Source: an uncultured Methanosarcinales archaeon
Lineage (GTDB): Archaea; Nanobdellota; Nanobdellia; Woesearchaeales; JASKKU01
DNA: 64,000 bases
NCBI GenBank assembly: GCA_964386095.1
Contig: CAYLQM010000001.1
Span: forward strand, 4,372 to 68,371
Direction of reading: 5' to 3'
Shown here: positions 3,920-62,057 of the stretch, in pieces
Layout of the letters: every line of letters starts with the position of its first letter
Numbering within the stretch: position 1 is the first letter of the stretch
Translations under genes and position numbers: made by a program
Notes under the pieces: model-generated
What the model was told of the DNA's origin: nothing
What the model saw: only the letters and a program-made list of their open reading frames with translations
Database searches by the model: none

Positions 3920-4429
3920 TTATTCTCTTTTAACTTTGTACAGTCCTGTGGACATTAATAATTCGTATCTGTTTTTGAGTTCTAGGTAGATGGAATCCTT
4001 TTTTATTGAAGTGGCTTTTGGATAAACTTCGCTTAACAAGAAATCGTAAACTTTTCTGGCAGAGTTATACCGTTTTTCCTGAAAGTATTCGTCGAACAAT
4101 CCCAAACTCACATCGCATATTTCGTTAGAAAGGGCGTTTTTGTTTTCTTCAGAAAGTTTAGAATAATTCTCTTTTATGATATCGAAGAGTTTGATTGTTT
4201 TTGAAACTCTGTGCATGCTTATTAACTGCGAAATCTTTTCAACACATTTATTTATCTTTTTGAGGTAACGATTGTTCTTTTTTGTTTCGATTTTTATTCG
4301 TTTTAATTCTTCTTTTGTTTCTCTTTCCAATCTTGAGTTGATTCGTATTCTTTTGATGATAAGAGTAATCTTTGCAATTATTAATAATATGACGAAAGTA
4401 ATGCCTATGGATAATAAGTACCGATTCAT
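3920..4429 (-). CDS. Hypothetical membrane-anchored coiled-coil protein (169 aa)
   Basis: N-terminal TM helix (LLSIGITFVILLIIAKITLII) followed by a Lys/Glu-rich helical region. Lies downstream of rad50 on the same strand. Confidence 0.4.
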   Translation of the reverse strand: MNRYLLSIGITFVILLIIAKITLIIKRIRINSRLERETKEELKRIKIETKKNNRYLKKINKCVEKISQLISMHRVSKTIKLFDIIKENYSKLSEENKNALSNEICDVSLGLFDEYFQEKRYNSARKVYDFLLSEVYPKATSIKKDSIYLELKNRYELLMSTGLYKVKRE

Positions 4430-12193: not shown

Positions 12194-13288
12194 ATGGTAA
12201 CTATGAAAAAAAAAGAAATTAATTTTTACAAACCCTTGGCGTTTGTTTTGCTAATATTGATACTTTTAGAGTTGCAGTTTAAGTTTAATATATTCTCGGA
12301 CTTGAATGGGATTAAAAGAATGTTCGGTTCTCCTGAATCAGATAAGGTAATGGTTCTTGTAAACAGCGAGAAGATTTATCAGAGCGAGTTTAACGCAACA
12401 TATAACAGCTTGAAAATTGGAAATCCTGCTGTTGCCAAATCTGACGTTTTGCAGTTGTTGATAGAACAGAAGGTTCTCGTTTCCAAGGCGAAGTCTTTAG
12501 GCATTACCGTTAATGATTCTGAAGTGAAACAGTATCTTGACCAATATATTCAACAGGTTGGTGGAGAGCAACAGTTTGATTTTACTCTGAAATCTTTGAA
12601 TTTAAGCAAAGAGATGTTCGAAAATATGTTAAGAGAGCAAATATATATTCAGAAGCTGTTTGAACAATATTACTTTAATCAGATAGATATTGATGATAAC
12701 GAAGTTAATGATTTTGTTGAGCAACAGTTCGGTTCGGCGGATGCAGTAAACGATTCCGTTAAGCAAACTCTTAAGGAAGCGTTGCTTGCGCAAAAGAGAA
12801 TTATCTTTATCCAGGAAAAAGTTGATGAGCTTGTAAAGGAAGCCGACATCAGGTTTTTGGCAGATTTTGAAGATTATTCCGGGATGATTCCGTCTGATGT
12901 TGATGACTCAATTGCAATAAATGATAATTCCATTAAAGATGATAGCACTTTAAAAACGGTTCAAATTGATGTGCCTGAAGATAATTTGAGCATGCAGGGG
13001 AATCGGCAACTCAATTCAGATTTAAAAGAATGCGTGAAAAAGCAATCTGAAGATGTGGATTTTTTCATTATTTGTGATGATTGCGATATGTTCAAATCGT
13101 TTTTTGCTGACAAAGATAGGAAGGCATATATAGGAACTCCGGATGATGAAACTATTTCGTTGATTAAAAATTGTCTGTCCTCGGTTTATCAGGGTTATAT
13201 TCCGGAAGTTATCTGTTTGAATAACGGCAAGTCTTTGACAGATGATTTTGATTCAAAGCTGGAATCATTTTTTGAGGATTGTGTTTAG
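12194..13288 (+). CDS. Secreted SurA-N-terminal-domain-like chaperone with an acidic, Cys-containing C-terminal region
   Basis: Signal/TM LAFVLLILILL. VNSEKIYQSEF...LLIEQKVLVSKAKSLGITVNDSEV resembles the SurA/PpiD N-terminal chaperone domain. No PPIase motif. Confidence 0.4.
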   Translation: MVTMKKKEINFYKPLAFVLLILILLELQFKFNIFSDLNGIKRMFGSPESDKVMVLVNSEKIYQSEFNATYNSLKIGNPAVAKSDVLQLLIEQKVLVSKAKSLGITVNDSEVKQYLDQYIQQVGGEQQFDFTLKSLNLSKEMFENMLREQIYIQKLFEQYYFNQIDIDDNEVNDFVEQQFGSADAVNDSVKQTLKEALLAQKRIIFIQEKVDELVKEADIRFLADFEDYSGMIPSDVDDSIAINDNSIKDDSTLKTVQIDVPEDNLSMQGNRQLNSDLKECVKKQSEDVDFFIICDDCDMFKSFFADKDRKAYIGTPDDETISLIKNCLSSVYQGYIPEVICLNNGKSLTDDFDSKLESFFEDCV

Positions 13289-13360
13289 GAAACTTTGAAG
13301 ATGTTAATTTTTTGATATTGGAATATGCTCCTTGATTTTCAATGAGGGGTCCATCTTAAA

Positions 13361-15496
13361 ATGGGTGATAAAATGATAGAAGGGAAGAAACCTAGGATTA
13401 GATATAAGTCCAAGATCTTAAGGGAAAAAGGGAATAAAAAAGAAGTTGATCCGAAAGAACATTCTTCACAGGACCAAGGAAAAAACAAAAAAGAAAAACC
13501 TGTGACAGCAGAGCATAGAAAGAGTGAAATGAATAAAGAGCGGAATAAAGAGCATAAAACAACTCATTCATATCATGAATCAAAGAAAGAACGCAAATCT
13601 GAAGATGCTGAACAGCAGATATCAAAATCTGAACGCAGAAAAAGTAAGAAAACTAAGAAAACCAAGTTGAATGTGTGGGCAATTGTCTCTTTAATAGAGT
13701 TATTAATCCTGATATTCTTATTGGTATATCATCCTGGCGCTGCAAACAGTAATTCCGCAGGCAATAGGTCCTTAACAGGAGGAATAATAGGAATGGACAA
13801 CAATGAGAATATAAATATTGGTGAGACAAATAATAATGAAAAAAAGGCCGCGGTGGACTTTTATGTGATGGCTTATTGTCCTTTTGGGAATCAAGCAGAA
13901 GAATTCATTTATGATGTTTACAAAAGCATGAAAGATGCCGTAACTTTTAACCCAAGGTATGTTATTTATACTGACTATGCGGGCGGCAGCGAGGATTTTT
14001 GCATTGAAGACCCGGCAGATGGAAAAACTTATTGTTCTATGCACGGCATTCAAGAACTGCATCAGGATATTAGAGAACTTTGCGTGGCCAAATACTTTGG
14101 TATGGATGAATGGTTCGAGTTTGCAATTGCGATGAATGATAAATGCAACTCAGGAAATGCGGATACTTGTTGGGAAGGGGTTGCGAAAGACCTGAGTCTT
14201 GATGTTGGAAAAATAAAAAGTTGTGAGCAGGAGGAAGGGCTTGATTTGGTGAAGGAACAGTATGAACTGGATCAGGAGCATCAGGTTAGCGGTTCGCCAA
14301 CAATCTTTGTTAACGACGAACTTTATACGGGTTCAAGAAGTGCTGCCAGCATGATGACGGTTTTATGCAATTTAGATTCATTAAAACATTCAGATGCTTG
14401 TGAGGATATCCCAGTTTGCACTTCAGATTCTGATTGTCCTACAAAGGAAGGAAAGATAGCAAAATGTGAAAACCCAGGCACAAAGGAAGCTAAGTGTGTT
14501 TATACTGACGATGCAAAGGTAGAATTGATAGTGATTAATGATGACGAATGTCCAATTTGCGAAACCTCTGGAGTTATGATGACTAATCGGAGATACTTTT
14601 TGAATTTAGAGGTTAGAGAGGTTGAAGCAGATACAGCTGAAGGCAAAGAACTTATAGAGAAATATGGCATTGAACATTTGCCGGCTTACATTTTCAGTGA
14701 TAGTGTTACAAAGACAAATGCTTGGCAGGCGCAAGGTGTATCAAGATTCTTCAGGCAGTCCAAAGATAAGTATCTTTTAACTGATAAAGCCATAGGTTCA
14801 ACTTGGCCAGCAGACCCACAAGAAAGGCAGCAGTATCTAGATTTATTACAGAATTATGCTCAGCGCAACTTGGAAGTCTTGAACTACGGCTCAGGTAAAC
14901 CTAGATTGGATTACTTTGTTATGTCTTTTTGCCCTTATGGCAACCCTGCTGAAGAAGCTGCGGAGAAGATTTATTCTTTGTTGGGCGACAAAGTAGAGAT
15001 TGTTCCACATTATATCCTGTCCACAGATGGAAGCAGTTTGTCTTCGCTTCACGGGGTCCAAGAGGCCAATCAGGATGTAAGGGAGCTTTGCGCATTAGAC
15101 CTGTTTGGATTGAGAAAATTCTTTGATTTCGTTTTACAAGTTAATAAAGACTGCAATTCTGGAAATGCGGATACTTGTTGGGAAGATGCAGCTAAGAACG
15201 CGGGGCTTAGAAATGATGAAATTTCCCAGATAAAGAACTGCTTTGATACGAGAAAGTTTGAGATTGCAAAACAAGAGGCTGATTTGAACAATGAGCTGTA
15301 TACATTGTATGGAGGGCAACTTGTGCATCCTTCAGCATCCCCAACATTTTTGATAAATGGCGAAACTTATTCAGGCAGCAGGGATGCAAATGAAATAAAG
15401 AAAGAATTGTGCGCTCTATTTAACGACAACGATAAACCAACTGAATGCAGCGAAACAATTGAGACAACAGCATCATCACCATCAGGCACCTGTTAG
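13361..15496 (+). CDS. Membrane-anchored protein with two tandem DsbA-like thioredoxin-fold domains (CPxG variant) and a long basic N-terminal tail
   Basis: ~110-aa Lys-rich N-terminus, one TM (VWAIVSLIELLILIFLLVY), then two ~270-aa repeats. Each repeat has YCP(F/Y)GN, DKCNSGNADTCWE and a DsbA-type cis-Pro loop (GSPTIFVND / ASPTFLINGE). Confidence 0.55.
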   Translation: MGDKMIEGKKPRIRYKSKILREKGNKKEVDPKEHSSQDQGKNKKEKPVTAEHRKSEMNKERNKEHKTTHSYHESKKERKSEDAEQQISKSERRKSKKTKKTKLNVWAIVSLIELLILIFLLVYHPGAANSNSAGNRSLTGGIIGMDNNENINIGETNNNEKKAAVDFYVMAYCPFGNQAEEFIYDVYKSMKDAVTFNPRYVIYTDYAGGSEDFCIEDPADGKTYCSMHGIQELHQDIRELCVAKYFGMDEWFEFAIAMNDKCNSGNADTCWEGVAKDLSLDVGKIKSCEQEEGLDLVKEQYELDQEHQVSGSPTIFVNDELYTGSRSAASMMTVLCNLDSLKHSDACEDIPVCTSDSDCPTKEGKIAKCENPGTKEAKCVYTDDAKVELIVINDDECPICETSGVMMTNRRYFLNLEVREVEADTAEGKELIEKYGIEHLPAYIFSDSVTKTNAWQAQGVSRFFRQSKDKYLLTDKAIGSTWPADPQERQQYLDLLQNYAQRNLEVLNYGSGKPRLDYFVMSFCPYGNPAEEAAEKIYSLLGDKVEIVPHYILSTDGSSLSSLHGVQEANQDVRELCALDLFGLRKFFDFVLQVNKDCNSGNADTCWEDAAKNAGLRNDEISQIKNCFDTRKFEIAKQEADLNNELYTLYGGQLVHPSASPTFLINGETYSGSRDANEIKKELCALFNDNDKPTECSETIETTASSPSGTC

Positions 15497-15703
15497 ATTT
15501 TTTATTTTTATTTTTTATAGTTTTGAATTGTTCTTGTCTTTTGTTTCATCTTTTGTTCATATTTTATTTGAATTTGATGTTGCATAATGTTTTGACCTAA
15601 TGTAATTAAAGCAATAATTAAAGCAATAGATTAAAAACATTTTCACTCAACAAAAACAAAAAATATATAAATTATTGATTCATTCCTTTACAGTGGTGAT
15701 ATT

Positions 15704-17023
15704 ATGAAACCATCTTTAGAAAAAAAAGTTGAATCCGAGTATGACTTTTCAAGCGAGGAAAACCGTTCGAAAAATATTCTTAAGAAAGCTTTGCTTTGTG
15801 GAGCCGCAGCAGTTGCTCTTTCATCGTGTGGTGTCCGTCCAAACAACACCGCATTCAACCTTTATAACTTTAAAGTTGCCCAGTCAGGCGAGACAAATGA
15901 CAATATCTTTGTCGGTGATTCAATTCTTAGTTTTGATTTATCTTCGCCTGATGCTACAGAGGTTTATCTGCAAATCTACGGGAATGGTGAATTAATCCTG
16001 AAAGACACACTTAAGGCTTCGAGCAATGAAAATGAGGTTTATGCCAAAATTGAGGAGTATTTAGACCTTAGGGTTCCTGATATGAACCTTTTCCCTTACC
16101 AAATTTCAATCATAGCTACAACGCCTCAAAACCCTTCCATAAGTCTGGATTTCTCAACTGAATTAACAACTCCCATGCCAGTTTTTGGCAGAAAGCTTCC
16201 TGAATTGGTAAGTCGTTTGGATGATTTGCTGAATGAATATGTTTCAACAAAAGAACCTGAAGAAAGCCATTATTATTACTTTGTTGATAAAAGTGATGTT
16301 GAAGACGGTTATTATTTAAAAGCGCTTCTTTATGAGTCGTCCGATCTTTTTTTAAGAATTAGTGATGGACGGGGCGGAATTTTAATTTTAGAAGACTTCT
16401 TCCAGAAGCATTCACCTGATGCAACAATGATGCTGTATTCGGTGTGTGACTATCATCCATTTTTGCATTATGCTACAGCTACAGTTTCCGAAGCTTTAAC
16501 TTTGGCAAACATTGAACACATTATACTTGATTCATCACCTGATTTAAATCTTGTTGCTGCACCACTTCCTGAGGAGATTTTTAAATCTGTTAAAGAAAGT
16601 GACGACCCGACAGTTCATCCGTTGTCATCAGCAAAGTATTTCTCAGTTGGAAATAATAACAATGAACTTATCCTCTCTGAAAACTATTTCAAGGGAGAAA
16701 CTTTAAGCAAGGAAGTTCTTGAAAGATACACCTTTTTCAAGAATCGCGATGATTTTTTTGCGTTTAGCAACGAAACAGGCAACTTGTTAGCAATAGCAGT
16801 GGATATGCCATCGCCAAACTTGAGCAATGCTTCAGTGTTTTTGAATTCTCCTTATTTTTTCATAGGCTCTGTGCCTTCTTCAGAATTTTATCAGTCGCAG
16901 GAACAGATTCAGTTAGATGATGGCTCAATACTCAACTCTGTTTTGGATTTGCCTGTGGATTATAAGAATAAAATAAAGAACGCGTTGGATGAAGCTGAAG
17001 AAGACTTGAAAAAACTATTTTGA
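15704..17023 (+). CDS. Hypothetical secreted/lipoprotein-like protein (439 aa)
   Basis: N-terminal hydrophobic segment ending in a lipobox-like LSSCG. No recognisable domain. Confidence 0.45.
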   Translation: MKPSLEKKVESEYDFSSEENRSKNILKKALLCGAAAVALSSCGVRPNNTAFNLYNFKVAQSGETNDNIFVGDSILSFDLSSPDATEVYLQIYGNGELILKDTLKASSNENEVYAKIEEYLDLRVPDMNLFPYQISIIATTPQNPSISLDFSTELTTPMPVFGRKLPELVSRLDDLLNEYVSTKEPEESHYYYFVDKSDVEDGYYLKALLYESSDLFLRISDGRGGILILEDFFQKHSPDATMMLYSVCDYHPFLHYATATVSEALTLANIEHIILDSSPDLNLVAAPLPEEIFKSVKESDDPTVHPLSSAKYFSVGNNNNELILSENYFKGETLSKEVLERYTFFKNRDDFFAFSNETGNLLAIAVDMPSPNLSNASVFLNSPYFFIGSVPSSEFYQSQEQIQLDDGSILNSVLDLPVDYKNKIKNALDEAEEDLKKLF

Positions 17024-22419: not shown

Positions 22420-23184
22420 TTACCAAATGTCTGAGTTTTGATTCTTGGGTCTTTTCTTATGATTTTTTGTTCTGTTCTTGTTAAAAGTTATTTCCTTCTT
22501 TTTTTCAGAAAGATTCTTTGCCGAGATGAACAAGAAAATAATGTAAAAAAGGAATTCAAGATACAACGTTTTTTTGAACAGATTGATAATTCGTCCAATT
22601 AGGATTATTGAAGTGTATCCCAGGGAAACCTGGAACACTTTTGAGAATCTTAACCAACGCTTCCTTGCCCTGAGAATTGAGAAAGAAACAATGCTTGCAA
22701 CAAGAGCAATAATTATCAATTTTCCAAGTCGCAAAAAGCTCTGGTAAATGATGTTTCCTATTGAAAAAAGGATGTAACTGTTTCTTATAAGAATATGAAA
22801 TTCCCTTGATGCGGTAATGTTTGCAGTTTCAACCCGCTGAAAACAAGTGCTGAGGCATATCGGATTCTTGATATAAATGATTGAACTGTTTACGAAGTTT
22901 TTGTTTGATATGTCGACTTTTAAAGATGAAATGTTGAAATCATCTGGAAGCAGTGCCCACTGTTTTGTGATGACCGGTTTATTCCCGAGGAACATTAAAT
23001 TTAAAGAGTAATCGTTGCTTTTTAGAAGCGTAGATAAATCTTGCCAATAGAGGAAAGCATTAAATATGCTTAAGATTGTAGAAAATATCAGGAGAATTAG
23101 GATTATGTTTATTGTTTTTATTGATGAAAGCTTCTTAGCTTTAAACGGGTTAATAGAATAAAAAAGCGTTTTGAATAACTTCAT
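22420..23184 (-). CDS. Hypothetical membrane protein (254 aa; N- and C-terminal TM helices with an extracytoplasmic middle domain)
   Basis: TM segments INIILILLIFSTILSIF and LIIIALVASIVSFSIL. Last gene of the minus-strand cluster 26884->22420. Confidence 0.45.
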   Translation of the reverse strand: MKLFKTLFYSINPFKAKKLSSIKTINIILILLIFSTILSIFNAFLYWQDLSTLLKSNDYSLNLMFLGNKPVITKQWALLPDDFNISSLKVDISNKNFVNSSIIYIKNPICLSTCFQRVETANITASREFHILIRNSYILFSIGNIIYQSFLRLGKLIIIALVASIVSFSILRARKRWLRFSKVFQVSLGYTSIILIGRIINLFKKTLYLEFLFYIIFLFISAKNLSEKKKEITFNKNRTKNHKKRPKNQNSDIW

Positions 23185-23204
23185 TTTTTACATCCCCCTG
23201 AATT

Positions 23205-25694
23205 TTATGTTGTATAACTGTCTCCTAAAATTACTGGATCATCGAATCCAAGTTTTGGAAGCGAGGCAAAATATGGTGAGTTAAGATAATAATTATACAC
23301 TTTCGATTGATAAAGATTTGCCTTTTCTAATACTTCCTTAAAGTAAGCCGCTGTTTCAAGAACCCTTCGTGGATAAAATCTGCTTTGATCGGGAATGTGA
23401 ATGTCTGCTGCTGCAGCTGCATTCTCCAATGTTTCTCCAAGCTTTTCCTTGTCCCTCGCTCCCGGATATTTTTCTAAGAAATTATCTACATTAGATGGTC
23501 CCCAGTTGTATGCGAGTAATGCAACACCTAAGTTGTTATTATATCTTTTTATTAAATTTTTTAGGTATCGCACTGCAACAACCATATTTGGTTCATATTT
23601 GTTCATATCCTCCCACTCGTATCCTTCACCAAAGTCTTCCCAAACTGCATCGGAAACTTGACAGACTCCCTTGATGTTTTTAAGTCCTTCTGAGTTAGTT
23701 ATTTTGATTTCTTTGCCGTTTTCTTTTTCACCCAAACGATGCTTCTGTTGGATGCCACCTTCAATTGTTGCCAAGCCCATGAGAAGTGCAGGATCAAAAT
23801 TATTTTCCTCTGCAACCTTCTGAGCTGTAGAATAAAGTATTGGATAATCACCGATCAATTCAGCATAGGTTTTGCTAACCTTGTTGTTAGAAAATTCTGT
23901 TTTTTCTATTTTTTCAACGAATTCTTCATCAGCCTTTGCTGAGAGAGTTTTTTTTTTAATTACTTTAACCGCGGGACTTGAGATTTCGTATTCATATTTT
24001 ATTTTGGTATATACTGGCAGTACGGCTTTATAACTTTCAGAAAGAATGTTGCTGTCAATAGTCATAATGCATGGCAAAATGTATTGGTCGCCTTGTTTTA
24101 TTAAGTTCACTTCCTCAATACTTTCGAAGCAATGATAAGCTCCTTGTAGTGTGCTTGTGTCGTCAAAACCGAAATCCGAGAAACAATTCTTTCCTGTTTC
24201 TTCAAGGCCACAATCTGATAGATGTATTTCTTTTGGAGCAAGTATCTTTACATTCTTAATCTCCTTAAATCTTCCACTTCCACTGTTTCTTACGGAAAGG
24301 ATAAACATGTGTTTGTTGTTTTTGGTTGAAATTTGAATGGGATATTCACTCATTTCCCCATTGGCAGATAATCCTACAACAACAGGACCTGAAGAACTCT
24401 TGGTTGATTGGGGTCCATTGAGAAAACCCGATTCTTCAAGATAAGGATTTTTGTTTTGAGCAATGTATTCATATAACTTTTGCTGTTGCATAAAGTAAAA
24501 TTCTCGACTTGCAAATGTGGAAAATTCATAAATTACGTTGGCCTTTAGGGAAGCTTGATAGCTCTTATCAAAAGATATAGCTTCTGAAGGGATCTCGCAA
24601 TTAAGGATTTGGTAACTTAAGGCATTTCTCAAAGGAGCTGGCTCGTCGCAATTAATGCTGTAGCCATTGTCAATGTCTCCAGAAATGGAGTCTATTCTAA
24701 TGGTGTACTTCTCGGTGTTATTAAGGATTTCTCTGGGAATTTGATTCTGACTAGCGCCCTTAAATGATGCACTTATTTTTAACTCAATTTTCTCATTTTC
24801 ATCTACATAAGGCGGCAAAGGTAATGCTGAGGTTATTTTCACTTCTAAAGCTTGTTGCTTGGCGTCATATTGTCCTCTGTCTGATTGGAATGGAGCAATT
24901 CTTTCATTGATCCAGCTTCCGTTTATTAGTCTCTTGATTGGATTAATTATTGAATTTTTAAAGGAACCCCAGAAAGCTTTTGAACCTTCTTTCAAGCGTT
25001 CTGTGATGCTTTTCATCGCAATTTTAGCTTGAATTTGTTCTCCAGGATTGAGCCCTGGAACAGATATCTGCGATGAAATCCTTTGAATATAAGGCCAGGA
25101 CATAAGTGCGAGGAATATTAAAAAAATGGCTATAATCTTTCTAACAAAAGGTGTTGTGGAAGGTCTCTTATAGCTTGAATACAATAGTGCGAACAAGGGC
25201 CATATTGGTAGTAATATCCTGTTCACCAAGAAATATGGATTATTAATCATTCTTGACAGAAGGGGAAAGAAATATACTTCAATCACAAGAATTAGACCAA
25301 AAGCAATGATGTTTCTAAACAGGGCTGTCAAAAAGCCTTCTCCTTCATTCCTCAAAATTGAAAAAATCATTACGAAAAATAGAGCTATCCAAAAATGAAT
25401 TGCATAAACTGAGGAAATGTAAGAATAACCAAACATGATCCCGTCGATGAAAATGTGCTGGAAAATCGTAATTAGAATGAACAGGTCGTAAACATCATAT
25501 GGAAAAAAAGAGCGCAAGAACGCGAACAATCCTTTCCCAACTTTCTTTCCCATTCCAAAACCAACCCCCCCAATTACTCCTGCTGCAAGCTGAGGGCTTA
25601 TCATTCGTGGTGTGTTGAGAAAACCTCCGATTTTTTTAAAAGCGCTACCAATTACGCTCCCAAGTCCTTTAAGAAGACTAGCCTTCTCGCTCAT
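23205..25694 (-). CDS. Large polytopic membrane protein (829 aa) with a C-terminal lytic-transglycosylase (SLT/GH23 lysozyme-like) domain
   Basis: ~7 N-terminal TM helices, a large non-cytoplasmic middle region, and a C-terminal SLT-like segment: LLMGLATIEGGIQQ...SEGLKNIKGVCQVSDAVWEDF...VAVRYLKNLIKRY...LLAYNWGPSNV. Compare the SLT signature ES...GLMQ...AYNaGpG. Confidence 0.5.
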   Translation of the reverse strand: MSEKASLLKGLGSVIGSAFKKIGGFLNTPRMISPQLAAGVIGGVGFGMGKKVGKGLFAFLRSFFPYDVYDLFILITIFQHIFIDGIMFGYSYISSVYAIHFWIALFFVMIFSILRNEGEGFLTALFRNIIAFGLILVIEVYFFPLLSRMINNPYFLVNRILLPIWPLFALLYSSYKRPSTTPFVRKIIAIFLIFLALMSWPYIQRISSQISVPGLNPGEQIQAKIAMKSITERLKEGSKAFWGSFKNSIINPIKRLINGSWINERIAPFQSDRGQYDAKQQALEVKITSALPLPPYVDENEKIELKISASFKGASQNQIPREILNNTEKYTIRIDSISGDIDNGYSINCDEPAPLRNALSYQILNCEIPSEAISFDKSYQASLKANVIYEFSTFASREFYFMQQQKLYEYIAQNKNPYLEESGFLNGPQSTKSSSGPVVVGLSANGEMSEYPIQISTKNNKHMFILSVRNSGSGRFKEIKNVKILAPKEIHLSDCGLEETGKNCFSDFGFDDTSTLQGAYHCFESIEEVNLIKQGDQYILPCIMTIDSNILSESYKAVLPVYTKIKYEYEISSPAVKVIKKKTLSAKADEEFVEKIEKTEFSNNKVSKTYAELIGDYPILYSTAQKVAEENNFDPALLMGLATIEGGIQQKHRLGEKENGKEIKITNSEGLKNIKGVCQVSDAVWEDFGEGYEWEDMNKYEPNMVVAVRYLKNLIKRYNNNLGVALLAYNWGPSNVDNFLEKYPGARDKEKLGETLENAAAAADIHIPDQSRFYPRRVLETAAYFKEVLEKANLYQSKVYNYYLNSPYFASLPKLGFDDPVILGDSYTT

Positions 25695-25705
25695 ACTTTT
25701 TTCAC

Positions 25706-26884
25706 CTAATTATCGGAGATGTATATCTCTAAATGCAGAATGTTCACTTCCTCTGAAACAGGTTCTATTTTTAAATAGTTATTTCCTTCTCTCAGAAATG
25801 AGTTTACTTTGTAAGTGTATATCCTGTCAGAAGTTTCAATATCTGTTTTTATGCCATTAATGTTAACAATAAGTCTTCTATTCTTCAAGTCATCAGGAAA
25901 CTCGACTTTGAGAATAGCATCTTTTGAATTGAGCGAATCAATCTGTTCTTTAGAAACCTGGAAGTAGTATAGTGGATAAGAGGCTTCTTTCAGTTTTGTG
26001 ACAAGTTTAAGCTCATCAATTTTTAAAACGCCTTTTTCAAGAGAGAATTCTAAGTTGTTTTCTCCTTCCAGTATCCTCGATTGACTGATTTCTATTACAT
26101 TAAGGTTGTTGCATGCAGGCGTGCTTTCGTGGACTATTTGATTGTTTAGTTTAATGGTGAGTTTGCCGACTTTGTTAATATCGCAAGTGGTAATGAAATA
26201 AAGTTTAGCAGACTTTAAATTATTAAATTCCTTCTCATAAAGCATAAAACCTGTTTTAGCTGTTAAACTGTCTTTTTTTAGGATGTTAGCTATGATCTTT
26301 AAGTCATTTAATTTAAGTTTGCTCTTGAAGAAAATGAATGGTTTGCCCAGTTTGAAAGCGAGCGTGTTTTCTTTTTGAAGATATTTTGCCGGAATTTCTA
26401 TCGGGTTAATGCTTCCAGAATGTAGTTTATCAGAATAAATCGTATAACCGTTGAGGATTATGTTAGTGATTCCTTTTGATTCATCCACTTTAAAACTAAG
26501 ATATGCTTTTTCTACTTCTTCAGGGTTATCTAGAAGGAACCTTACTTCATTGCTTTTTTCGGAAAAAAAGCTCCTGTCTGTGTAAAAAGAATTTAGGTAA
26601 AAAATCTCTTGGGGTAATGACTCCGCGCAGAGATACAACATGGGCATGGGATGTTCTATCGAATCTTGATCAATTTTGTTAATCTTGCCAGGACTTCTTG
26701 AAAGCAGAGTGTTTGAATTAACCGTTGAAACATTTGAGCTCGTTGTTTCATTATCAGAACCCAGAATTTCATCTCTCGCCTCTGGGGGAATTAAAAGGAG
26801 ATATGCTATGAACAAAAGAATAATTAACACGACAATCATTGATGGTTTTAACTCTTGACCTCTTTTGGAATTGGGCATTGACAT
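25706..26884 (-). CDS. Hypothetical secreted/membrane-anchored protein (392 aa)
   Basis: N-terminal signal-anchor MIVVLIILLFIAYLLLI, then a Ser/Thr-rich linker and a beta-rich domain. First gene of the cluster. Confidence 0.45.
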   Translation of the reverse strand: MSMPNSKRGQELKPSMIVVLIILLFIAYLLLIPPEARDEILGSDNETTSSNVSTVNSNTLLSRSPGKINKIDQDSIEHPMPMLYLCAESLPQEIFYLNSFYTDRSFFSEKSNEVRFLLDNPEEVEKAYLSFKVDESKGITNIILNGYTIYSDKLHSGSINPIEIPAKYLQKENTLAFKLGKPFIFFKSKLKLNDLKIIANILKKDSLTAKTGFMLYEKEFNNLKSAKLYFITTCDINKVGKLTIKLNNQIVHESTPACNNLNVIEISQSRILEGENNLEFSLEKGVLKIDELKLVTKLKEASYPLYYFQVSKEQIDSLNSKDAILKVEFPDDLKNRRLIVNINGIKTDIETSDRIYTYKVNSFLREGNNYLKIEPVSEEVNILHLEIYISDN

Positions 26885-26997
26885 TTTTTCACTTCTTTAT
26901 ATCTTGATTATATCTTGAAACTGCTTATTTTTAAATTTTTTTTATTTATACAATTTTCGTTTACTCCCTTTAAAAATAAAACAGTATACAAAAAAAC

Positions 26998-27019
26998 ACA
27001 ACCTTTAAATAAAGGTTGT
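26998..27019. promoter_or_regulatory. Perfect inverted repeat ACAACCTTTA-AA-TAAAGGTTGT (10-bp arms) 14 bp upstream of gene 27033
   Basis: Read directly from the sequence. Placed over the promoter/5'UTR of the first paralog. Confidence 0.45.
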
Positions 27020-27032
27020 TACCTTATTTTGC

Positions 27033-27479
27033 TTGAGAATGGTAATTTTATTTGATAAATTCAATTTGCCTGATGATATTTTGGATGTTATTTTCTCAAC
27101 CAATAATCAGAGAGCTGTCGCTAAGCTGCTTATGGAATACTTTAAGCAGAATGATGGGGTTCTTGATAAAAAGCAAATGTCCCTATTTGCTAATTCGCTT
27201 CATCTTGGCTTAATTTTTAAGGGGGATATTGAAGGCATTAAAAGTCATAAACCTTTGGTATATAATAAAAGGCAATTTTACGATAGAATTATTACCCCAA
27301 TGAAGAGCATGGGCCTAATTACTTATGATTTGTATGATAAAAAATATAAATTGGGCGGTGATTTTAAAACTCAAATGGCAAAGCTTGGCGAACTGTTTGA
27401 AAAGAAAATAAATGAAGAAAAGAAAGATATAAAGTTCTCTTTCTATCCTCCTGAAGAGATAAAACGAAAGTTACAATAA
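27033..27479 (+). CDS. Small winged-helix-like protein, paralog 1 (148 aa)
   Basis: ~50% identical to ORF 28258..28671 over ~120 aa. Shared blocks: MVILFD.(F/Y)NLP(D/E)DI..VIFST, MSLFA..LH, YNKRQFYDRI(I/L)TPMKSMG(L/M)I.YDLY.K.Y.L. Confidence 0.5.
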   Translation: MRMVILFDKFNLPDDILDVIFSTNNQRAVAKLLMEYFKQNDGVLDKKQMSLFANSLHLGLIFKGDIEGIKSHKPLVYNKRQFYDRIITPMKSMGLITYDLYDKKYKLGGDFKTQMAKLGELFEKKINEEKKDIKFSFYPPEEIKRKLQ

Positions 27480-28257: not shown

Positions 28258-28671
28258 ATGGTAATTTTGTTTGATATGTATAACCTGCCTGAGGATATCT
28301 TCGAAGTGATTTTTTCTACTAAACAACAGGCAATTGTTGCAAGGCAGTTGTTTAAAGAGTTTAAACACCATGGAGGAATTATGACTAAATCTGAGATGTC
28401 TCTTTTCGCTACGCAGCTCCACAATGGCGAATATGTTGCAAAAATAGATGAACCTCCATTCATTGGAAAGAAAGTAAAGTTATCATATAATAAGAGGCAG
28501 TTTTATGATAGAATATTAACGCCGATGAAAAGCATGGGGATGATTTATTACGACTTGTATAAAAAAACTTATTCGCTTTCGGACAATTTCAGCAAGCTTA
28601 TGCAGAAATTTGCAATCATGTGGAATCTGGAGTTAAAGAAACCATTGGGAAGTCCAATTAAGCGAGCATAA
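28258..28671 (+). CDS. Small winged-helix-like protein, paralog 2 (137 aa)
   Basis: Paralog of 27033..27479 (see that entry). Confidence 0.5.
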   Translation: MVILFDMYNLPEDIFEVIFSTKQQAIVARQLFKEFKHHGGIMTKSEMSLFATQLHNGEYVAKIDEPPFIGKKVKLSYNKRQFYDRILTPMKSMGMIYYDLYKKTYSLSDNFSKLMQKFAIMWNLELKKPLGSPIKRA

Positions 28672-33981: not shown

Positions 33982-34395
33982 TTAACAACAGTAAAACTCT
34001 TCTTGTTCTTTTTTGGTAACATCAAAAGGCACATCGTGTTTTTTCATATTTTCTATGAATTCCTTGTTTTCTTTAAGCTCAATTCCTTTTTTTACAAGAA
34101 TTGTCCTAATGGCTCTGAAAATAGTAGTGAGTTCAAGTTTGCTTGGACACAATTCCTCGCAGGCACCGCATAATGCGCATGCGTAAAATATTTTTGGTTC
34201 TATCTTTTTTGAATCAACGAGAATATTTTTCCCTCTGGGCGAGTAAGCTTCGTTTAGAAGAGTATTGAATACAGGGCAGATTTCTTTGCACAAACCGCAT
34301 CGCGAGCACAACTGCAACTTTTCCTGAAGTTCATTTAGCAGATTCTCAAGTTCTTCATCTTCAACTTCTGACAGGGATTTTGTTTCGGGTTCCAT
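33982..34395 (-). CDS. 2x[4Fe-4S] ferredoxin-domain subunit (GlcF N-half/HdrC-like)
   Basis: Two CxxCxxCxxxCP motifs (CSRCGLCKEICP, CALCGACEELCP). Confidence 0.65.
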   Translation of the reverse strand: MEPETKSLSEVEDEELENLLNELQEKLQLCSRCGLCKEICPVFNTLLNEAYSPRGKNILVDSKKIEPKIFYACALCGACEELCPSKLELTTIFRAIRTILVKKGIELKENKEFIENMKKHDVPFDVTKKEQEEFYCC

Positions 34396-34401
34396 TTTTT
34401 C

Positions 34402-35592
34402 TTAATTCTGACTGTTTAATTTTTCAGAGAGTGTGTTGAATAACTCTCTGTTGAATATGTTTTGAGGGTCGTATTTAAATTTTAAATTCGCAATATTTTC
34501 TAAGAAAATCTTATTGGCGAATTCAGCCTTCTTTAAACCGATTCCGTGTTCTCCCGACACTTTTCCGTTTAACTTTCCCACGAAAGAGTACATCTTTTTT
34601 ATGAGATCTTTTTGATTTTTCTTGAAACATGGATGAATTATGCCTGAACCAATATGACCAAAATAGGGTATATTATTTTTCTCAAGAAATCTTAAAAAAG
34701 GTTCAAGATTTTCTTCATCTATCTGCGGGTCTTCTATCAGGATAAAACCCTGCTCGGCAAGCGTGGGGTAAGCCTTTTCCCTTATTCTTAAAATTCTTTC
34801 GTATTCATCATCAGCGGTTTCATCTAATAATCCTGCAAGCAGTACAATTTTCTCACAGCCCAAGATTAATTGAGTGCTTTTTTTATCAATAACCTCGAGC
34901 ATAATGGTTTTGTCATTTTTCTTGTAGTGCTTCATATCTTTTAGCATGTCCTCTACATTTTCATATTCTTTTGATTCAATTTTTATGCGGGGTTTTTCAA
35001 TTAGCTTTAATTTTGCTTTAACAATTATGCCAAACGTCCCTTCAGAACCAATGATCTCCTTGGAAGCAATCCCGTTTCCATTCCCGTCTAAAAATAAAAC
35101 TTCATCAATCCAATTCTCTACTTTGCCGAATCTGAGACTCCAATTGCCTGCAGAATTGCAGTTAATCATACCACCGATGGTGCAAACTCTGTGAGATGAA
35201 GGAATTACAGGAAAAATAGTTCTCTTAAGCATTTCATTAAGGACATTGCATATAACACCAGGCTCAACAATTGCAAACTTTTCTTTTTCATTTATTTCTA
35301 TGATGTTGTTGAGTCTTGATAAGTCAGCAACAATTTCACTGCTTAAAGCATTTCCGACCAGATTTGTTCCGCTCCCTCTCGCAGTTATACTAACATTGTT
35401 GTTTTTACAAATTTTAATTATGTCTTTGAGTTGCTCTGCACTGGTAGGAAATACAACTATCTGAGGTTGAATAGAAATAGTGCTGGCATCCTGGCTGTAA
35501 GCATAAACCTCGATATCTTTGCTGAATTGTTTGAATTCTATTCTCTTTTTGTTGAATTCAATAGTTATTTTGGTTAATGTTTCTGAGTTCAT
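34402..35592 (-). CDS. FAD-binding oxidase subunit (GlcD/D-lactate dehydrogenase-like)
   Basis: FAD_binding_4-type N-terminus (PQIVVFPTSAEQLKDIIKICKNNNVSITARGSGTNLVGNA) and a C-terminal FAD-oxidase domain. Confidence 0.7.
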   Translation of the reverse strand: MNSETLTKITIEFNKKRIEFKQFSKDIEVYAYSQDASTISIQPQIVVFPTSAEQLKDIIKICKNNNVSITARGSGTNLVGNALSSEIVADLSRLNNIIEINEKEKFAIVEPGVICNVLNEMLKRTIFPVIPSSHRVCTIGGMINCNSAGNWSLRFGKVENWIDEVLFLDGNGNGIASKEIIGSEGTFGIIVKAKLKLIEKPRIKIESKEYENVEDMLKDMKHYKKNDKTIMLEVIDKKSTQLILGCEKIVLLAGLLDETADDEYERILRIREKAYPTLAEQGFILIEDPQIDEENLEPFLRFLEKNNIPYFGHIGSGIIHPCFKKNQKDLIKKMYSFVGKLNGKVSGEHGIGLKKAEFANKIFLENIANLKFKYDPQNIFNRELFNTLSEKLNSQN

Positions 35593-35598
35593 TTTTAA

Positions 35599-36351
35599 TT
35601 AAAGTCCTAATGCCCTAACTAATAATTGGGACAATTCTACGACAGGCAAGTTTTTTGAGTTTTCTTTTAGGTGAAGATAACAGAGAGGGCAACTTGTTAT
35701 CATTGCATCGACTTCCATTTCTTCAGCTTGCGACACTCTCTTTTGCGCAATTTTATTTGATAGGTCTTTATTAGTAGTTCTTACTCCTGCTCCCCCGCCA
35801 CAACAAAAAGAATTTTCTCTTGAGAAATTCATCTCTTTGAGTTCTTTTACGCATTTTAATATTATATTCCTTGGCTCATCATAAATGCTTGAATGTCTTC
35901 CGAGATGACATGGGTCATGATAAGTTACCTTTGCAAAGGGCATGTTTTTTACTTTCAATTTATATGACTGCTCGTTTAACAATTGTGTGAAATGTATTAC
36001 TTTGAAACCTTGCCTGTTCCAGTTTTCAAATTTTGAATATTCGTGATGGAATGTGTGATAACATGCAGGGCAATTAGTTAGGATGGTCTTAATACTTCTT
36101 GATGAAAAATATATGATGTTCTTTTCAATCTGATTTTTAAATACCTCTTCATACCCAGCATTGAATGCCGGGGACCCGCAACATTTGATTTCGTCTACAA
36201 CAATATAATCTAAATTAAGATAATCCAGAATCTTGATGTAATTTTGTTCGAGGTCCTTGCCAACATATCTGGTAAGACACCCGGGATAATATGCAAGATT
36301 CCCTGAGCTGGACCTTGAAAACAGGTTTTTGATGGAATCAATCAATTTCAT
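35599..36351 (-). CDS. CCG-domain subunit (GlcF C-half/HdrB/LutA-like)
   Basis: Two cysteine-rich CCG motifs (CCGSPAF and FCCGGGAG). Forms an operon with the FAD and Fe-S subunits. Confidence 0.65.
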   Translation of the reverse strand: MKLIDSIKNLFSRSSSGNLAYYPGCLTRYVGKDLEQNYIKILDYLNLDYIVVDEIKCCGSPAFNAGYEEVFKNQIEKNIIYFSSRSIKTILTNCPACYHTFHHEYSKFENWNRQGFKVIHFTQLLNEQSYKLKVKNMPFAKVTYHDPCHLGRHSSIYDEPRNIILKCVKELKEMNFSRENSFCCGGGAGVRTTNKDLSNKIAQKRVSQAEEMEVDAMITSCPLCYLHLKENSKNLPVVELSQLLVRALGL

Positions 36352-39738: not shown

Positions 39739-42700
39739 TTGAGTGAGAAAATGCAAAATAGAAAATCTGTAACATTAAAGGTTAGTGGAGCCATTTCAGA
39801 CGATGTGAATAAAGGCATAGTTAGAATAGATGTTTCCTATTTGCGCGATATTGGGGCGAGGCCGGGCGACATTGTAGAAATTGAAGGCAAACGCACGACT
39901 GTGGCAATTGTTGATAGAGCTTACCCGAGCGATATTGGTTTAAACATCATAAGAATGGATGGTCCCACACGAAGGAATTGCCAAACGAGCATTGGCGAAT
40001 TTGTTAAGGTAAGGAAAGCTGATTTTAAGATTGCAGACAAGGTTATTATTGCCCCAGCTCAAGAAGGTGTGGTTATACAAGCTCCAAACTCATTTTTCAA
40101 GAGCGGATTAATTGGCAAACCTGTTGTTAAAGGAGATATTGTGTCTATTGGAGGAAGCAACTCAAGAACAAGAATCTTCTCGCAAAGCAGATTCTTTGAT
40201 GATTTGGATATATCCAGGATAATCAATCAGAACTTAAATAGATTTGGTTTTAGTGATTTAAAATTTGTAGTGGTTGATGTTAATCCTAAGGGAACTCCTG
40301 TTCTTATAACTGATACAACAGAGGTAGTCTTTAATCCAGAAGCCGTTCCAAAGGTTGAATCTAAGGCGTTGGATGTTACTTATGAAGACATTGGCGGTTT
40401 GAGTGAAGAGATTAGGAAAATTAGAGAAATGGTTGAATTGCCTTTGAGATATCCTGAACTTTTTGAAAGATTGGGAATTGATTCGCCAAAAGGCGTTCTT
40501 TTGCATGGTCCCCCAGGTACAGGTAAAACAATGCTGGCTAAAGCTGTAGCAAATGAGACAAATGCGCATTTTATCCTTATAAACGGCCCTGAAATTATGA
40601 GCAAATATTATGGTCAGAGCGAACAGAATCTTCGTCAGAAATTCGAGGAAGCTGAAAAGAATGCTCCAAGCATAATCTTTATTGATGAAATTGATGCAAT
40701 CGCTCCTAAGAGAGAAGAATCCAAGGGCGAGGTTGAGAGAAGAGTTGTTGCGCAACTCTTGGCATTGATGGACGGGTTGAAATCTCGTGGCAAGGTTATA
40801 GTTATTGCTGCAACCAACATCCCAAATCAAATAGACCCTGCATTAAGGAGACCTGGAAGATTCGATCGAGAGCTAGAGATTGGCGTCCCCGATATGAATG
40901 GGAGGAAACAGATTCTAAAGATTCATACGAGAAACATGCCAATACTTCCTCAAGTTGAATGGTTTGAACTTAAACCTGCTTTGAAAAGTAGAATCTCAGA
41001 GACGCTTAAAAAACTTAAACAGGATAAACGAGACGTGGAAGTTAAATTAAAAGAATGCGATAAAGAATTTAAGAAATATACTACTATGGTGCAAGAGATA
41101 ACTAAAAATATAAACGAACTCAATGAAAAAAGGTTTAACAGTGGGGAAGGCAAGTTTATTGAGCTTTCAAATAAGATTAAAGAGCGCACATCTGATAAGA
41201 AATTCTATGAAATGAGATTAGAGGAACTTAAACGGGATAAAGATAATTATACCTACAAACTTGAGCAAATTAAACAAAATTCTGAGCATTTATCAAACAT
41301 TCTTGAGCTTATAAAGAATGTTAAGTATGTTGATGGATTATTGTTGGGGCTGTCTTATGATGAGAACAACTTGTTAGAGAGCAAATTGAAGGATTATGTC
41401 CTGGGACTGTTGTCTAAGAATAATGCTGATATTAAGGATTTTAAGATAGCTCATTCATTCAGGAAGTTTAAAGATGAAATCTTGGAAAAAGTTCAAAGTT
41501 CCGTGTTGAAAAAGAAAATTTCAGCGTTGGAGTTTGGCGGCGGCAAGTTTAATAAGGAGACCTTAAAAATTCTGTTGGATTTAATTAATGATAAGGTGTT
41601 AAAAGGGAAATTAAAGATGTTTATAGAAATTGCTGATGATGATGCGGATTTAACCAAATTGATTACAGGAAACTATCTGCCATATGATCTTAAATCCTCA
41701 ATATTAAACGGGCTTAAGGAAAATATTTTAAATGAATTGGCCGAGAAGACTCACGGTTTTGTTGGGGCTGATTTGGCTGCGTTGGCTAAGGAAGCTGCAA
41801 TGGCTGCCGTTAGAAGAATTCTGCCGGACATTATGAAGACAGAGGAAGAAAGTGTTTCTGAAGACATTCTCAACAGCGTTTATGTAACCAATGAGGATTT
41901 TAGGGAAGCTTTGAGGGTTGTCAGACCAAGCGCTTTGAGGGAAGTTTTTGTAGAAGTTCCTAATGTTGCTTGGGAAGACATCGGTGGATTGGAGGATGTA
42001 AAACAAGAATTAAAAGAAGTTGTGGAGTGGCCGCTTAAGCATAAAGAGGCATTCAGAAGACTTTCAATAAAACCGCCTAAGGGAGTTTTGTTGTATGGTC
42101 CGCCTGGTACAGGCAAGACTTTGTTAGCTAAAGCAGTGGCAAGCGAAACCTCGTCAAACTTTATTCTTATTAAAGGTCCTGAGTTGATTAGTAAATGGGT
42201 TGGCGAGAGTGAAAGAGCAATTCGTGAAATCTTTAAGAAGGCGAGGCAGACATCTCCATGCGTGATTTTCTTTGATGAAATTGATGCAATTGCTTCAAGG
42301 AGGTCTTCATCTTCGCAAGACTCAAAAGTTAATGAAAGAGTTGTTAATCAACTTTTAACGGAAATGGATGGTGTTGAAGAGTTGAATGATGTAGTGATTA
42401 TCGCTGCAACCAACAGGCCTGATATTCTGGATACAGCACTTTTAAGACCGGGCAGGTTTGATAGAATTATTTTAACTCCTGCTCCGGATTTGAAATCCCG
42501 GCTTGAAATCTTTAAAGTACATACTAAGGGAATGCCTCTGGCTAAGGATGTTAGTTTGGATGAACTTGCCGAAAAAACTGAAGGGTATTCTGGTGCAGAT
42601 ATTGAAGCGATATGCAGGGAAGCAGCTATGCTTGCTTTAAGAGAAGATCTCAATGCAATGGAAGTAAAAATGGAACATTTTGAGGGTGCTCTTAAACGAG

Positions 42701-42813
42701 TTTATCCGTCCATAACTTCTGAAATTATGAAAGCTTATGCTGAACTCCAAAAGAAGTTTAGGGCAGCGAAGGGCGAGGAATTAAGATTAAACAAACCGTC
42801 GTATTATGGTTAA
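39739..42813 (+). CDS. cdc48: Cdc48/VCP-like AAA+ ATPase (N domain + D1 + D2) with a large insertion in the D1 lid
   Basis: N domain ([23 protein letters not shown]). Two Walker A motifs GPPGTGKT and two Walker B motifs (IIFIDEIDA / VIFFDEIDA). SRH regions ([21 protein letters not shown] / [21 protein letters not shown]). It is 1024 aa against a usual ~740. Confidence 0.85.
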
Positions 42814-60890: not shown

Positions 60891-62057
60891 TCAAATTTTG
60901 GCCCTTTCTTTTAGGACCTTGGCAAGGTCGGTTTTTTCCCAGGTAAATTCAGGTTCTTCCCTGCCAAAATGACCAAATGCAGCTGTTTTCTTGTAAATTG
61001 GTCTTTTAAGATTTAAATGGGCAATTATACCTTTAGGTGTTAATGGAAACAGGGTTCTAACTAAATAAGCAAGTTTTTGTTCATTGATTTTACCAGTGCC
61101 AAAAGTGTCAATGTAAATCCCTACGGGTTGCGCAATACCAATAGCATAAGCCAACTGAACCTCGCATTTCTCAGCAAGACCCGCTGCAACTATGTTTTTG
61201 GCGATGTATCTTGTCATATAAGCTCCGCTTCTATCAACTTTGCTGGGGTCTTTTCCTGAAAAAGCGCCACCGCCGTGCCTGCCCAAGCCTCCATAGGTGT
61301 CAACAATGATTTTTCTTCCAGTTAAGCCAGTATCAGCAGCAGGACCGCCTAAAACGAACCTACCGGTAGAATTTATATATGTTTGGGTGTCTTCTTTTAA
61401 GTATCTTTTAAGAACGGGTTTGATTACATGGGTTTTTATATCTTCCTGCAATTTTGCGTGCTTTATGTTTTCGTTATGTTGGGTTGCGATAACAACAGTT
61501 TTGACTTTGCAGGGCTTTTCATCAACATATTCCACAGTAACTTGACTTTTGCAGTCTGGTCCTAAATATTTTAAGATTCCTAATTCTCTCACTTCTTTTA
61601 ACTTCTGGGTTAATTTATGAGCCAACATAATAGGTAAAGGCATAAGCTCTTTAGTTTCATTTGTAGCATAACCGAACATCATTCCTTGATCTCCAGCGCC
61701 CTGTTCGTGATTTTCGTTTTCGTCAACTCCGCGAGCAATGTCTGGGCTTTGGGGTTGAACTGAAACGAGAATCCCGCAACTATTGTAATCAAGCCCCCAT
61801 TTAACATCATTATAACCAATTTCTTTTATGGTTTCTCTTGCAACTTTGTCGATATTTACCTGGGCCTTGCTCTTGATTTCGCCCGCAATTATAATGTATC
61901 CTTTGGTTGCCAATGCTTCCACAGCCACTCTTGATTCGGGGTCTTTCTCAAGAAAAGCATCCAGAACTGCATCTGAAATCTGATCACAAACTTTATCAGG
62001 ATGGCCTGCACCAACGCTCTCAGAAGTAATTAACCTTTTCATAAAATCACCTCGCAT
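60891..62057 (-). CDS. metK: S-adenosylmethionine synthetase, bacterial/eukaryotic type
   Basis: [55 protein letters not shown] and DTYGG are MetK hallmarks. Confidence 0.9.

Follow-up and report, generated by a model that had tools for sequence, protein, structure and literature searches.

A lytic-transglycosylase module carried on a conserved DPANN membrane core protein in a Woesearchaeales genome

We analyzed a 64,000-nucleotide stretch of DNA (the window) from an uncultured Methanosarcinales archaeon that GTDB places in Woesearchaeales (JASKKU01); it spans positions 4,372 to 68,371 of the forward strand of contig CAYLQM010000001.1 in assembly GCA_964386095.1. Our analysis revealed that one of its genes, B829, encodes two separable parts: a membrane core of about 600 residues that is conserved in DPANN archaea and usually lacks an SLT domain, and a C-terminal SLT (lytic transglycosylase) module that is an accessory to this core. 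An earlier interpretation made from the letters of the window alone (the sequence-only reading) had noticed the SLT domain and missed this division. B829 stands between two neighbors, and the three genes are named after the lengths of their products. Homologues are numbered P0002 to P0085, and the compared loci L001 to L017.

25706..26884, minus strand: A392, open reading frame (ORF) of 392 amino acids, partner gene of the core
23205..25694, minus strand: B829, ORF of 829 amino acids, DPANN membrane core with a C-terminal SLT module
22420..23184, minus strand: C254, ORF of 254 amino acids, polytopic membrane protein, lineage-specific third gene

These positions are exactly those given by the sequence-only reading, which had also described the genes as co-oriented and tightly spaced; in the ORF list, 11 nt separate A392 from B829 and 20 nt separate B829 from C254. 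The parts of B829 are as follows.

25065..25550, minus strand: amphipathic helix and bundle of five transmembrane (TM) helices (residues 49-210; TM helices at 68-87, 94-113, 121-150, 155-176 and 182-209)
24855..25064, minus strand: helical stalk (residues 211-280; three long helices; predicted local distance difference test score, pLDDT, of 59-74 in the AlphaFold2 model)
23949..24854, minus strand: two beta-sandwich (Ig-like/E-set) domains (residues 281-582; ectodomain characteristic of the core family; motifs YFM and GPVxxG)
23310..23939, minus strand: SLT / GH23 family-1 lytic transglycosylase module (residues 586-795)
23760..23762, minus strand: codon of the predicted catalytic acid, Glu645 of TIEGG, aligned with the Slt70 glutamate

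The C-terminal SLT domain proved to be real. Pfam SLT (PF01464) matched residues 624-745 of B829 with 34.3 bits (E = 1.9e-8) against a gathering score of 21.3, the isolated module scored 37.5 bits (E = 2e-9), and 13 of 15 homologues of the module matched the same family. A profile built from these 15 homologues found E. coli Slt70 (1qsa) with an E-value of 1.9e-7, aligning Glu645 with the glutamate of the RQES motif, which is the catalytic Glu478 of that enzyme. The profile was needed to reach Slt70, as a phmmer search of PDB sequences with full-length B829 gave no match. The AlphaFold2 model, computed from a 30-sequence alignment, had a mean pLDDT of 83.8, with values mostly above 90 over the SLT module, and Foldseek supported the SLT fold, a lysozyme-like all-alpha catalytic fold, with a probability of 1.0. 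The best sequence and structure matches of the module were all true family-1 lytic transglycosylases.

The motifs that had been picked out by eye, TIEGG (23754..23768), KGVCQVSDAVWED and AYNWGPSNV, are all present in B829. Invariant in all 15 module homologues are Glu645, the Gly before CQ of GVCQ and that in AYNWG; the Asn in the latter motif is almost invariant, and the Gln of GVCQ is present in close homologues, not in all 15. An insertion of about 13 residues lies between the catalytic Glu and the GxxQ motif. Since Pfam, the Slt70 profile, the invariance of the glutamate, AlphaFold2 and Foldseek all agree, the two objections that the sequence-only reading had foreseen, a C-terminus with no significant match or fold and an unconserved catalytic glutamate, fall away. 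The identity of the SLT between orthologues (52%) is similar to that of the beta domains (47-56%), indicating that the module is under constraint and not decaying. With all its catalytic motifs intact, the domain looks catalytically competent.

Besides SLT, no Pfam family was found in B829. LysM, SH3b and PG_binding domains were found neither in B829 nor, at E ≤ 1e-3, in the 15 module homologues; a LysM-like C-terminus that we had noticed by eye in some standalone SLT homologues was unsupported by Pfam at the same threshold. NCBIfam gave matches to flagellar and Slt transglycosylases, all below threshold. PHROG lysis and tail families also matched B829. A phage lysin, tape-measure or tail-associated SLT was considered and rejected, since the PHROG matches cover only residues 625-784, no relatives were found in IMG/VR, and the neighbors are housekeeping genes.

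Hydropathy and the AlphaFold2 model give B829 a disordered basic N-tail (residues 1-48) and an amphipathic helix (44-63), followed by five TM helices, the stalk (217-269), two beta-sandwiches (284-580), both modelled with confidence, and the SLT module (586-791). The roughly seven TM helices counted from the letters are therefore five strongly hydrophobic helices and one amphipathic helix. Basic residues are concentrated in the N-tail and in the loop between TM4 and TM5. Because the number of TM helices is odd and the charges follow a positive-inside distribution, the C-terminus is predicted to lie outside (N-in/C-out), so that B829 would be membrane-tethered with its SLT facing outward. The standalone SLT homologues bear N-terminal anchors or Tat-like RR signals, and a TatC gene is located within the window. 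From the domain sizes, we estimate that the stalk and Ig-like domains, if extended, could hold the SLT perhaps 10-15 nm away from the membrane at the cell surface. The TM bundle is the most conserved part of B829 (73% identity to P0002 and 66% to P0003); the family consensus contains the motif NRILxPxWPxFA in the bundle, and Pro163 is near-invariant.

An exhaustive phmmer search of 1.84 billion representative sequences returned 105 matches to B829, which split cleanly into those covering residues ~30-600 (the core) and those covering residues ~585-825 (the SLT module). Among all these representatives, this particular fusion of core and SLT occurs only in B829 and P0002 (814 aa), which is 55-57% identical to B829 and whose in-frame fusion, the same as in B829, was seen on several contigs, derived from four sequencing runs. 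The core relatives that come next in similarity (P0003, P0005, P0008 and P0010) are about 600 aa long and have no SLT; P0003 terminates exactly where the SLT extension would start, and the following gene begins 16 nt further on. The closest relatives of the module are standalone proteins of 307-383 aa (P0004, P0006, P0007 and P0009), assigned to Woesearchaeota where they bear a name. They are 49-53% identical to the B829 module over the catalytic domain and 43-49% identical over the whole module of about 245 residues, including its N- and C-terminal extensions.

Both parts occur separately in one assembly, GCA_964416905.1. Its SLT-less core, P0003, is located on one contig; P0007 and P0006 (383 and 309 aa), which are 49-51% identical to the fused module, lie in tandem on another, between the genes for RtcB and form III RuBisCO (L017 4725..6930, contig CAYQFL010000005.1). 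A third standalone variant, P0004, occupies the same position between RtcB and RuBisCO in L008. Within the binning of this sister metagenome-assembled genome (MAG), GCA_964416905.1 and the window thus stand in a split-versus-fused (“Rosetta stone”) relationship.

According to Pfam, an SLT lies downstream of the core in B829, P0002, P0022, P0023, P0028, P0030 and P0085, the last annotated as Nanobdellota, that is, in 7 of 28 core-family members. No further Pfam domain recurs among the 28, P0028 having one sub-threshold match to Peptidase_M15. The SLTs of the five distant members (P0022, P0023, P0028, P0030 and P0085) are only 19-22% identical to the B829 module. In a rough neighbor-joining tree, the SLTs of P0022, P0030, P0023 and P0085 were placed with other generic SLTs, that of P0028 stood alone, and the B829 module joined the standalone Woesearchaeota clade. 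Because the distant SLTs diverge and group apart, this crude tree suggests that at least two independent fusions attached different SLT subfamilies to the same scaffold. Moreover, the TM bundle is strongly conserved and most core members have no SLT, which argues that the scaffold has a primary function beyond the SLT. Some labels in the comparison look doubtful: L013 and L014, with 30% GC and a DPANN-like operon, are titled “uncultured Methanosarcinales archaeon”, and the core-family member P0027 is labelled “Nitrospiraceae bacterium”. Mis-binning or taxonomy-mapping artefacts are possible causes.

The core also has a constant companion. A homologue of A392 is located directly 5′ of the core in all eight loci with an upstream flank (L001, L005, L009, L011, L012, L013, L014 and L016); L015 is uninformative, as its contig ends just upstream of the core. 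The identity to A392 is 69% in L001, 68% in L005, 41% in L016 (E 6e-106) and 30% in L009 (E 6e-47), and the upstream proteins of L011-L014 are 25-30% identical to it in family alignments. Since the homologue is found wherever the upstream flank is present, A392 and the core form a deeply conserved pair. Genes near the core in these related loci (PheRS, TrmB, Pelota, RFC, Spt4 and S24e/S27e) are archaeal. In L001, the locus of P0002, an extra GT2 glycosyltransferase gene (5824..6627) precedes the A392 homologue, and an inserted block further downstream (12905..16659) contains TspO, Pyr_excise and a DpnII restriction-modification system.

A392 consists of a short basic N-terminus (..KRGQ..), one hydrophobic anchor (~residues 16-33) and an ectodomain rich in beta structure, in which at least two internal repeats are homologous (d1 versus d2, hhalign probability 96.6%). 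It had no match in Pfam, NCBIfam or PHROG, and a profile search of the PDB gave none; its single-sequence AlphaFold2 model (pLDDT 40) was unusable. A [KR][GA]Q motif, whose Gln is invariant in the first six aligned sequences, is conserved in the A392 family and is followed by a hydrophobic helix and LIPP. The motif recalls a class III (prepilin-type) signal, but the spacer of 4-10 polar residues between it and the hydrophobic stretch in most family members argues against this, and no prepilin peptidase was seen in the window. The product had been described from the letters as secreted and beta-rich; the beta-rich ectodomain stands, and in place of an obvious secretory signal the N-terminus has an anchor that looks uncleaved.

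The third gene does not share this conservation. Orthologues of C254 were found only in L001 (49% identity) and L005 (45%), the two closest genomes; a counterpart is absent from L015, L016 and L009, and C254 is dissimilar to the downstream genes of the distant loci. The three-gene cluster that the sequence-only reading had treated as a unit thus contracts to A392 and the core. C254 had also been taken for a bitopic protein, and it is polytopic, with three to four hydrophobic segments (~24-46, 150-172 and 185-225), a conserved CxxxC in the first external loop and a basic C-tail. It matched no family in Pfam, NCBIfam or PHROG. Downstream of the core, the distant loci instead encode two or three lipoproteins (about 300-370 aa) that are paralogues of one another and have a lipobox Cys and the motif GT.GL.M.F...PP; none of these core-associated paralogues is present in this window.

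L009, 10724..12811: lipoprotein paralogues 3′ of the core
L011, 9932..12786: lipoprotein paralogues 3′ of the core
L012, 3975..7103: lipoprotein paralogues 3′ of the core
L013, 5744..8803: lipoprotein paralogues 3′ of the core

The C-terminal half of the lipoproteins is probably homologous to the second beta domain of the core (hhalign probability 83%, E 8.6e-6). We also considered one domain common to A392, the core ectodomain and the lipoproteins; hhalign supported the relation between lipoprotein and core only, not those between A392 and the core or between A392 and the lipoproteins.

The locus and the lineage of the SLT module are archaeal in origin. The window encodes GatD, GatE, L15e, archease, deoxyhypusine synthase, Rad50, Lhr, CDC48 and class-I GluRS, in agreement with the archaeal context assumed by the sequence-only reading. 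The closest homologue bearing a name is annotated as Candidatus Woesearchaeota, and the named relatives overall belong to Candidatus Woesearchaeota and Nanobdellota. The GC content is even over the region of the three genes, at about 0.32-0.36.

We favor, with somewhat better than even confidence, the view that B829 is a surface-tethered muralytic enzyme used on bacterial peptidoglycan, either the wall of a host or prey or wall debris; its topology, its substrate, its complex and its role are what we infer here. The five-TM bundle would anchor B829 in the membrane of the woesearchaeote (DPANN/Nanobdellota) with the N-tail in the cytoplasm, and the stalk and two Ig-like domains would project the SLT outward. 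A392 may co-assemble with the core as its surface partner. At the site of contact, or on debris, the SLT would cleave the N-acetylmuramic acid (MurNAc)-N-acetylglucosamine (GlcNAc) strands of bacterial peptidoglycan, and such cutting could let an archaeon that has no wall and a reduced metabolism reach the bacterial membrane or obtain muropeptides. Of the roles put forward by the sequence-only reading, attack on the wall of a bacterial partner, or its remodelling, remains the best reading of an SLT that is apparently intact, membrane-tethered and by prediction outward-facing. The complex of core and partner is probably a general DPANN envelope or contact scaffold, onto which SLT effectors appear to have been recruited by gene fusion in different lineages; in others, the SLT appears to be supplied in trans as a small secreted protein.

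Several points weigh against a muralytic role. Peptidoglycan is the presumed substrate by virtue of family membership, and B829 has no recognized peptidoglycan-binding domain. Because most core members have no SLT, the primary role of the core need not concern peptidoglycan, and conserved polar residues in the conserved TM bundle suggest a role of the core beyond anchoring. The fission/fusion argument depends on MAG binning, and the claim of independent fusions on a rough tree and pairwise identities. We know of no bacterial partner, and an association of Woesearchaeota with methanogens has also been put forward.

A broader interpretation is that A392 and the core, joined elsewhere by three lipoprotein paralogues of the ectodomain, constitute an undescribed, vertically inherited DPANN envelope machine for host contact or uptake, in which the highly conserved five-TM bundle would be the working center, as a channel or transducer, and SLTs, fused or encoded in trans, would mark lineages with bacterial hosts. 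We consider this an outside chance. If it were true, the presence and type of SLT on the scaffold would be a genomic predictor of the host domain for uncultured Woese- and Pacearchaeota.

Among other explanations of the tethered SLT, scavenging seems possible, though not likely: the enzyme would trim free peptidoglycan fragments or dead sacculi, and anhydromuropeptides would be imported for their amino sugars and amino acids. The evidence for the enzyme serves scavenging as well as a muralytic role at contact sites, and the two are hardly exclusive. DPANN genomes are metabolically reduced, dead-cell peptidoglycan has been proposed as a resource for Pacearchaeota (PMC11537232), and MFS and MATE transporters are encoded nearby. 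However, a tether to the membrane of the producer restricts the reach of the enzyme to insoluble sacculi, and AnmK, MurQ and NagZ were not seen within the 64-kb window. The lack of a peptidoglycan-binding module in B829 could instead point to another substrate, such as chitin (or chito-oligosaccharides), pseudomurein if the host is a methanogen, or glycans on the archaeon's own surface. We think this rather improbable, since the nearest matches of the module in sequence and structure are all genuine family-1 lytic transglycosylases and its E / GxxQ / AYNxG set is that of the Slt70-type enzymes. Pseudomurein, furthermore, has beta-1,3 linkages and no MurNAc, and we know of no SLT that cuts it. 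The fused SLT might also serve mainly to bind glycan, fastening the cell to the walls of bacteria, and its catalysis would then be of minor importance or lost. Attachment has been suggested for such proteins by Castelle et al. (PMC8204110), and the Ig-like stalk resembles the architecture of adhesins; nevertheless, the catalytic Glu is invariant, and the active-site motifs are conserved, across fused and standalone homologues, which pure binding does not require, and we give an adhesin very little credence.

The fusion of an SLT to a polytopic protein superficially recalls the pairing of VirB6-like proteins and hydrolases in monoderm conjugation systems, and the sequence-only reading had accordingly offered a VirB1-like role, in which the SLT would open the wall for a co-encoded trans-envelope machine (a type IV secretion system, a pilus or an injection device). 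A secretion scan, in which 54 of the 58 listed window ORFs of at least 120 aa were run against Pfam, did not bear this out: VirB4/VirD4/FtsK-type and PilB-type ATPases and genes for pilin, sheath, tube or a type IV secretion system are absent from the window and from L001-L016. The TM domain has no TrbL/VirB6 Pfam match, the flanks consist of conserved syntenic housekeeping genes, and the archaeon that makes B829 lacks murein that could be opened, so we regard this role as extremely unlikely. The SLT is typically a bacterial or phage domain, and PHROG lysis and tail families match that region of B829; an artefact thus had to be weighed, be it contamination by bacterial DNA, a chimera of the assembly or the insertion of a mobile or viral element. 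It is effectively refuted by the recurrence of this in-frame fusion in P0002, from an independent lineage (several contigs, four sequencing runs), by the uniform GC content and conserved flanking synteny, and by a scan of IMG/VR viral contigs, which found no relatives of the core, the PHROG matches being confined to the SLT.

The region upstream of A392 is presumed to hold the promoter of a three-gene transcription unit, and a convergent gene lies 31 nt 3′ of C254.

26885..27032, minus strand: intergenic region 5′ of A392, AT-rich, 148 nt, with TATA-like boxes and a purine-rich stretch ahead of the ATG, as read by eye

This region also contains a perfect-looking hairpin (~26990..27030; aacaaccttta / taaaggttgt), followed by a T-run on the minus-strand reading, between A392 and the divergent gene 27033..27479. 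The latter and 28258..28671, both on the plus strand, are small paralogues of 148 and 137 aa with a common N-terminus, MVILFD..NLP.DI..VIFST. The product of 28258..28671 matches a PHROG “transcriptional regulator” family (E 1.3e-4), and genes of similar size are found at the matching positions in the syntenic loci L001 and L005.

Other genes of the window deserve mention. The CDC48/VCP homologue (39739..42813, plus strand; 1024 aa) is interrupted between the D1 AAA core (residues 253-382) and its lid (~664-698) by about 280 aa that are rich in Lys and Glu and look like a coiled coil; the insertion has no Pfam match and is not intein-like in appearance. S-adenosylmethionine synthetase (60891..62057, minus strand) is of the bacterial/eukaryal three-domain type (S-AdoMet_synt_N/M/C), amid an otherwise archaeal genome. 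A SurA-N-like protein (12194..13288, plus strand) adjoins a 711-aa thioredoxin-like (VSR_TRX) protein (13361..15496, plus strand); the same pair neighbors the core gene in L015 (4286..7877), and both are possible folding factors of the extracytoplasmic space. Side by side (34402..36351 and 33982..34395, both minus strand) lie the genes for an FAD-linked oxidase, a CCG-domain protein and a 4Fe-4S ferredoxin-like protein, a group that resembles a module of the glycolate/D-lactate dehydrogenase type, here in a reduced genome.

Little is known of how the ultra-small DPANN archaea attach to their hosts and draw food from them, or of whether some live on bacteria rather than archaea, and SLT genes are the main genomic hint of bacterial hosts. 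In the present case, the SLT is no free toxin; it is bolted to a conserved membrane scaffold with a conserved partner, apparently more than once in evolution. The locus therefore offers a testable protein complex for the interface between archaeon and bacterium, together with a small, defined catalytic domain (residues 586-829).

The occurrence of SLT proteins in DPANN archaea has precedents. According to PMC8204110, Rinke 2013 and Castelle 2015 had recorded SLT/GH23 in three DPANN genomes, and SLT proteins of Woesearchaeota and Pacearchaeota have been read as acting on bacterial walls (PMC8204110, PMC9723730). In “vampiristic” Woesearchaeota MAGs, an SLT accompanies a putative pore-forming toxin (PMC9723730), and further surveys record DPANN SLT proteins (PMC10936187, PMC11537232). 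In the survey by Strock et al., ~5% of archaeal genomes, with Nanoarchaeota prominent among them, encoded modular peptidoglycan hydrolases, and two haloarchaeal enzymes were bactericidal (PMC12352652). Because SLT proteins have been documented there since 2013-2015, the presence of an SLT in a woesearchaeote is no surprise but to be expected; the statement of the sequence-only reading that its proposed roles are all unusual for an archaeon was overstated in view of these five papers (PMC8204110, PMC9723730, PMC10936187, PMC11537232 and PMC12352652). What is new is the architecture, together with its evolutionary pattern: the polytopic core, the conserved partner gene, the split and fused forms and the recurrent fusion of different SLT subfamilies are unmentioned in the papers that we read.

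Compared with the Slt70-type family 1 (E. coli Slt70, P. aeruginosa Slt, Neisseria LtgA and MltE), B829 has its one catalytic Glu in the matching position and shares the motifs GxxQ and AYNxG; an extracytoplasmic location is predicted for its SLT. It differs in that its host is a murein-less archaeon, and in that it has neither the superhelical U/L domain nor a lipoprotein anchor, its SLT being located at the end of the five-TM core, the stalk and two Ig-like domains. The Ser after the catalytic Glu is replaced by Gly (EGG) and GLMQ by GVCQ, and about 13 residues are inserted after the catalytic helix. Its role would be heterologous attack or scavenging, in contrast to autolysin turnover. The archaeal hydrolases of Strock et al. 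2025 (e.g., the Halogranum M23 enzyme “Woldo”) resemble B829 as bacterial-type enzymes of archaea for which export and bacterial peptidoglycan as target are predicted. They are, however, soluble and secreted, combine a catalytic with a wall-binding domain, are often plasmid-borne and have a patchy distribution, whereas B829 is membrane-embedded, has no known wall-binding domain, so that it does not count as modular in that sense, and is chromosomal in conserved synteny.

The DPANN murein-like lytic transglycosylase proteins (fam00969 in Castelle 2021; AR20 in Castelle 2015; GH23 in Vigneron et al. 2022) occur in the same phyla, have an SLT domain like that of B829 and are proposed to bind or degrade the bacterial walls of hosts or prey. 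By their published description, those proteins are very large (up to ~3,000 aa) and extracellular. The standalone Woesearchaeota SLTs described above (P0004, P0006, P0007 and P0009) come from the same archaeal lineage as B829 and share about half of their catalytic-domain residues with it (49-53% identity), but each is encoded by a gene of its own, unfused to the core, and has an N-terminal anchor or signal.

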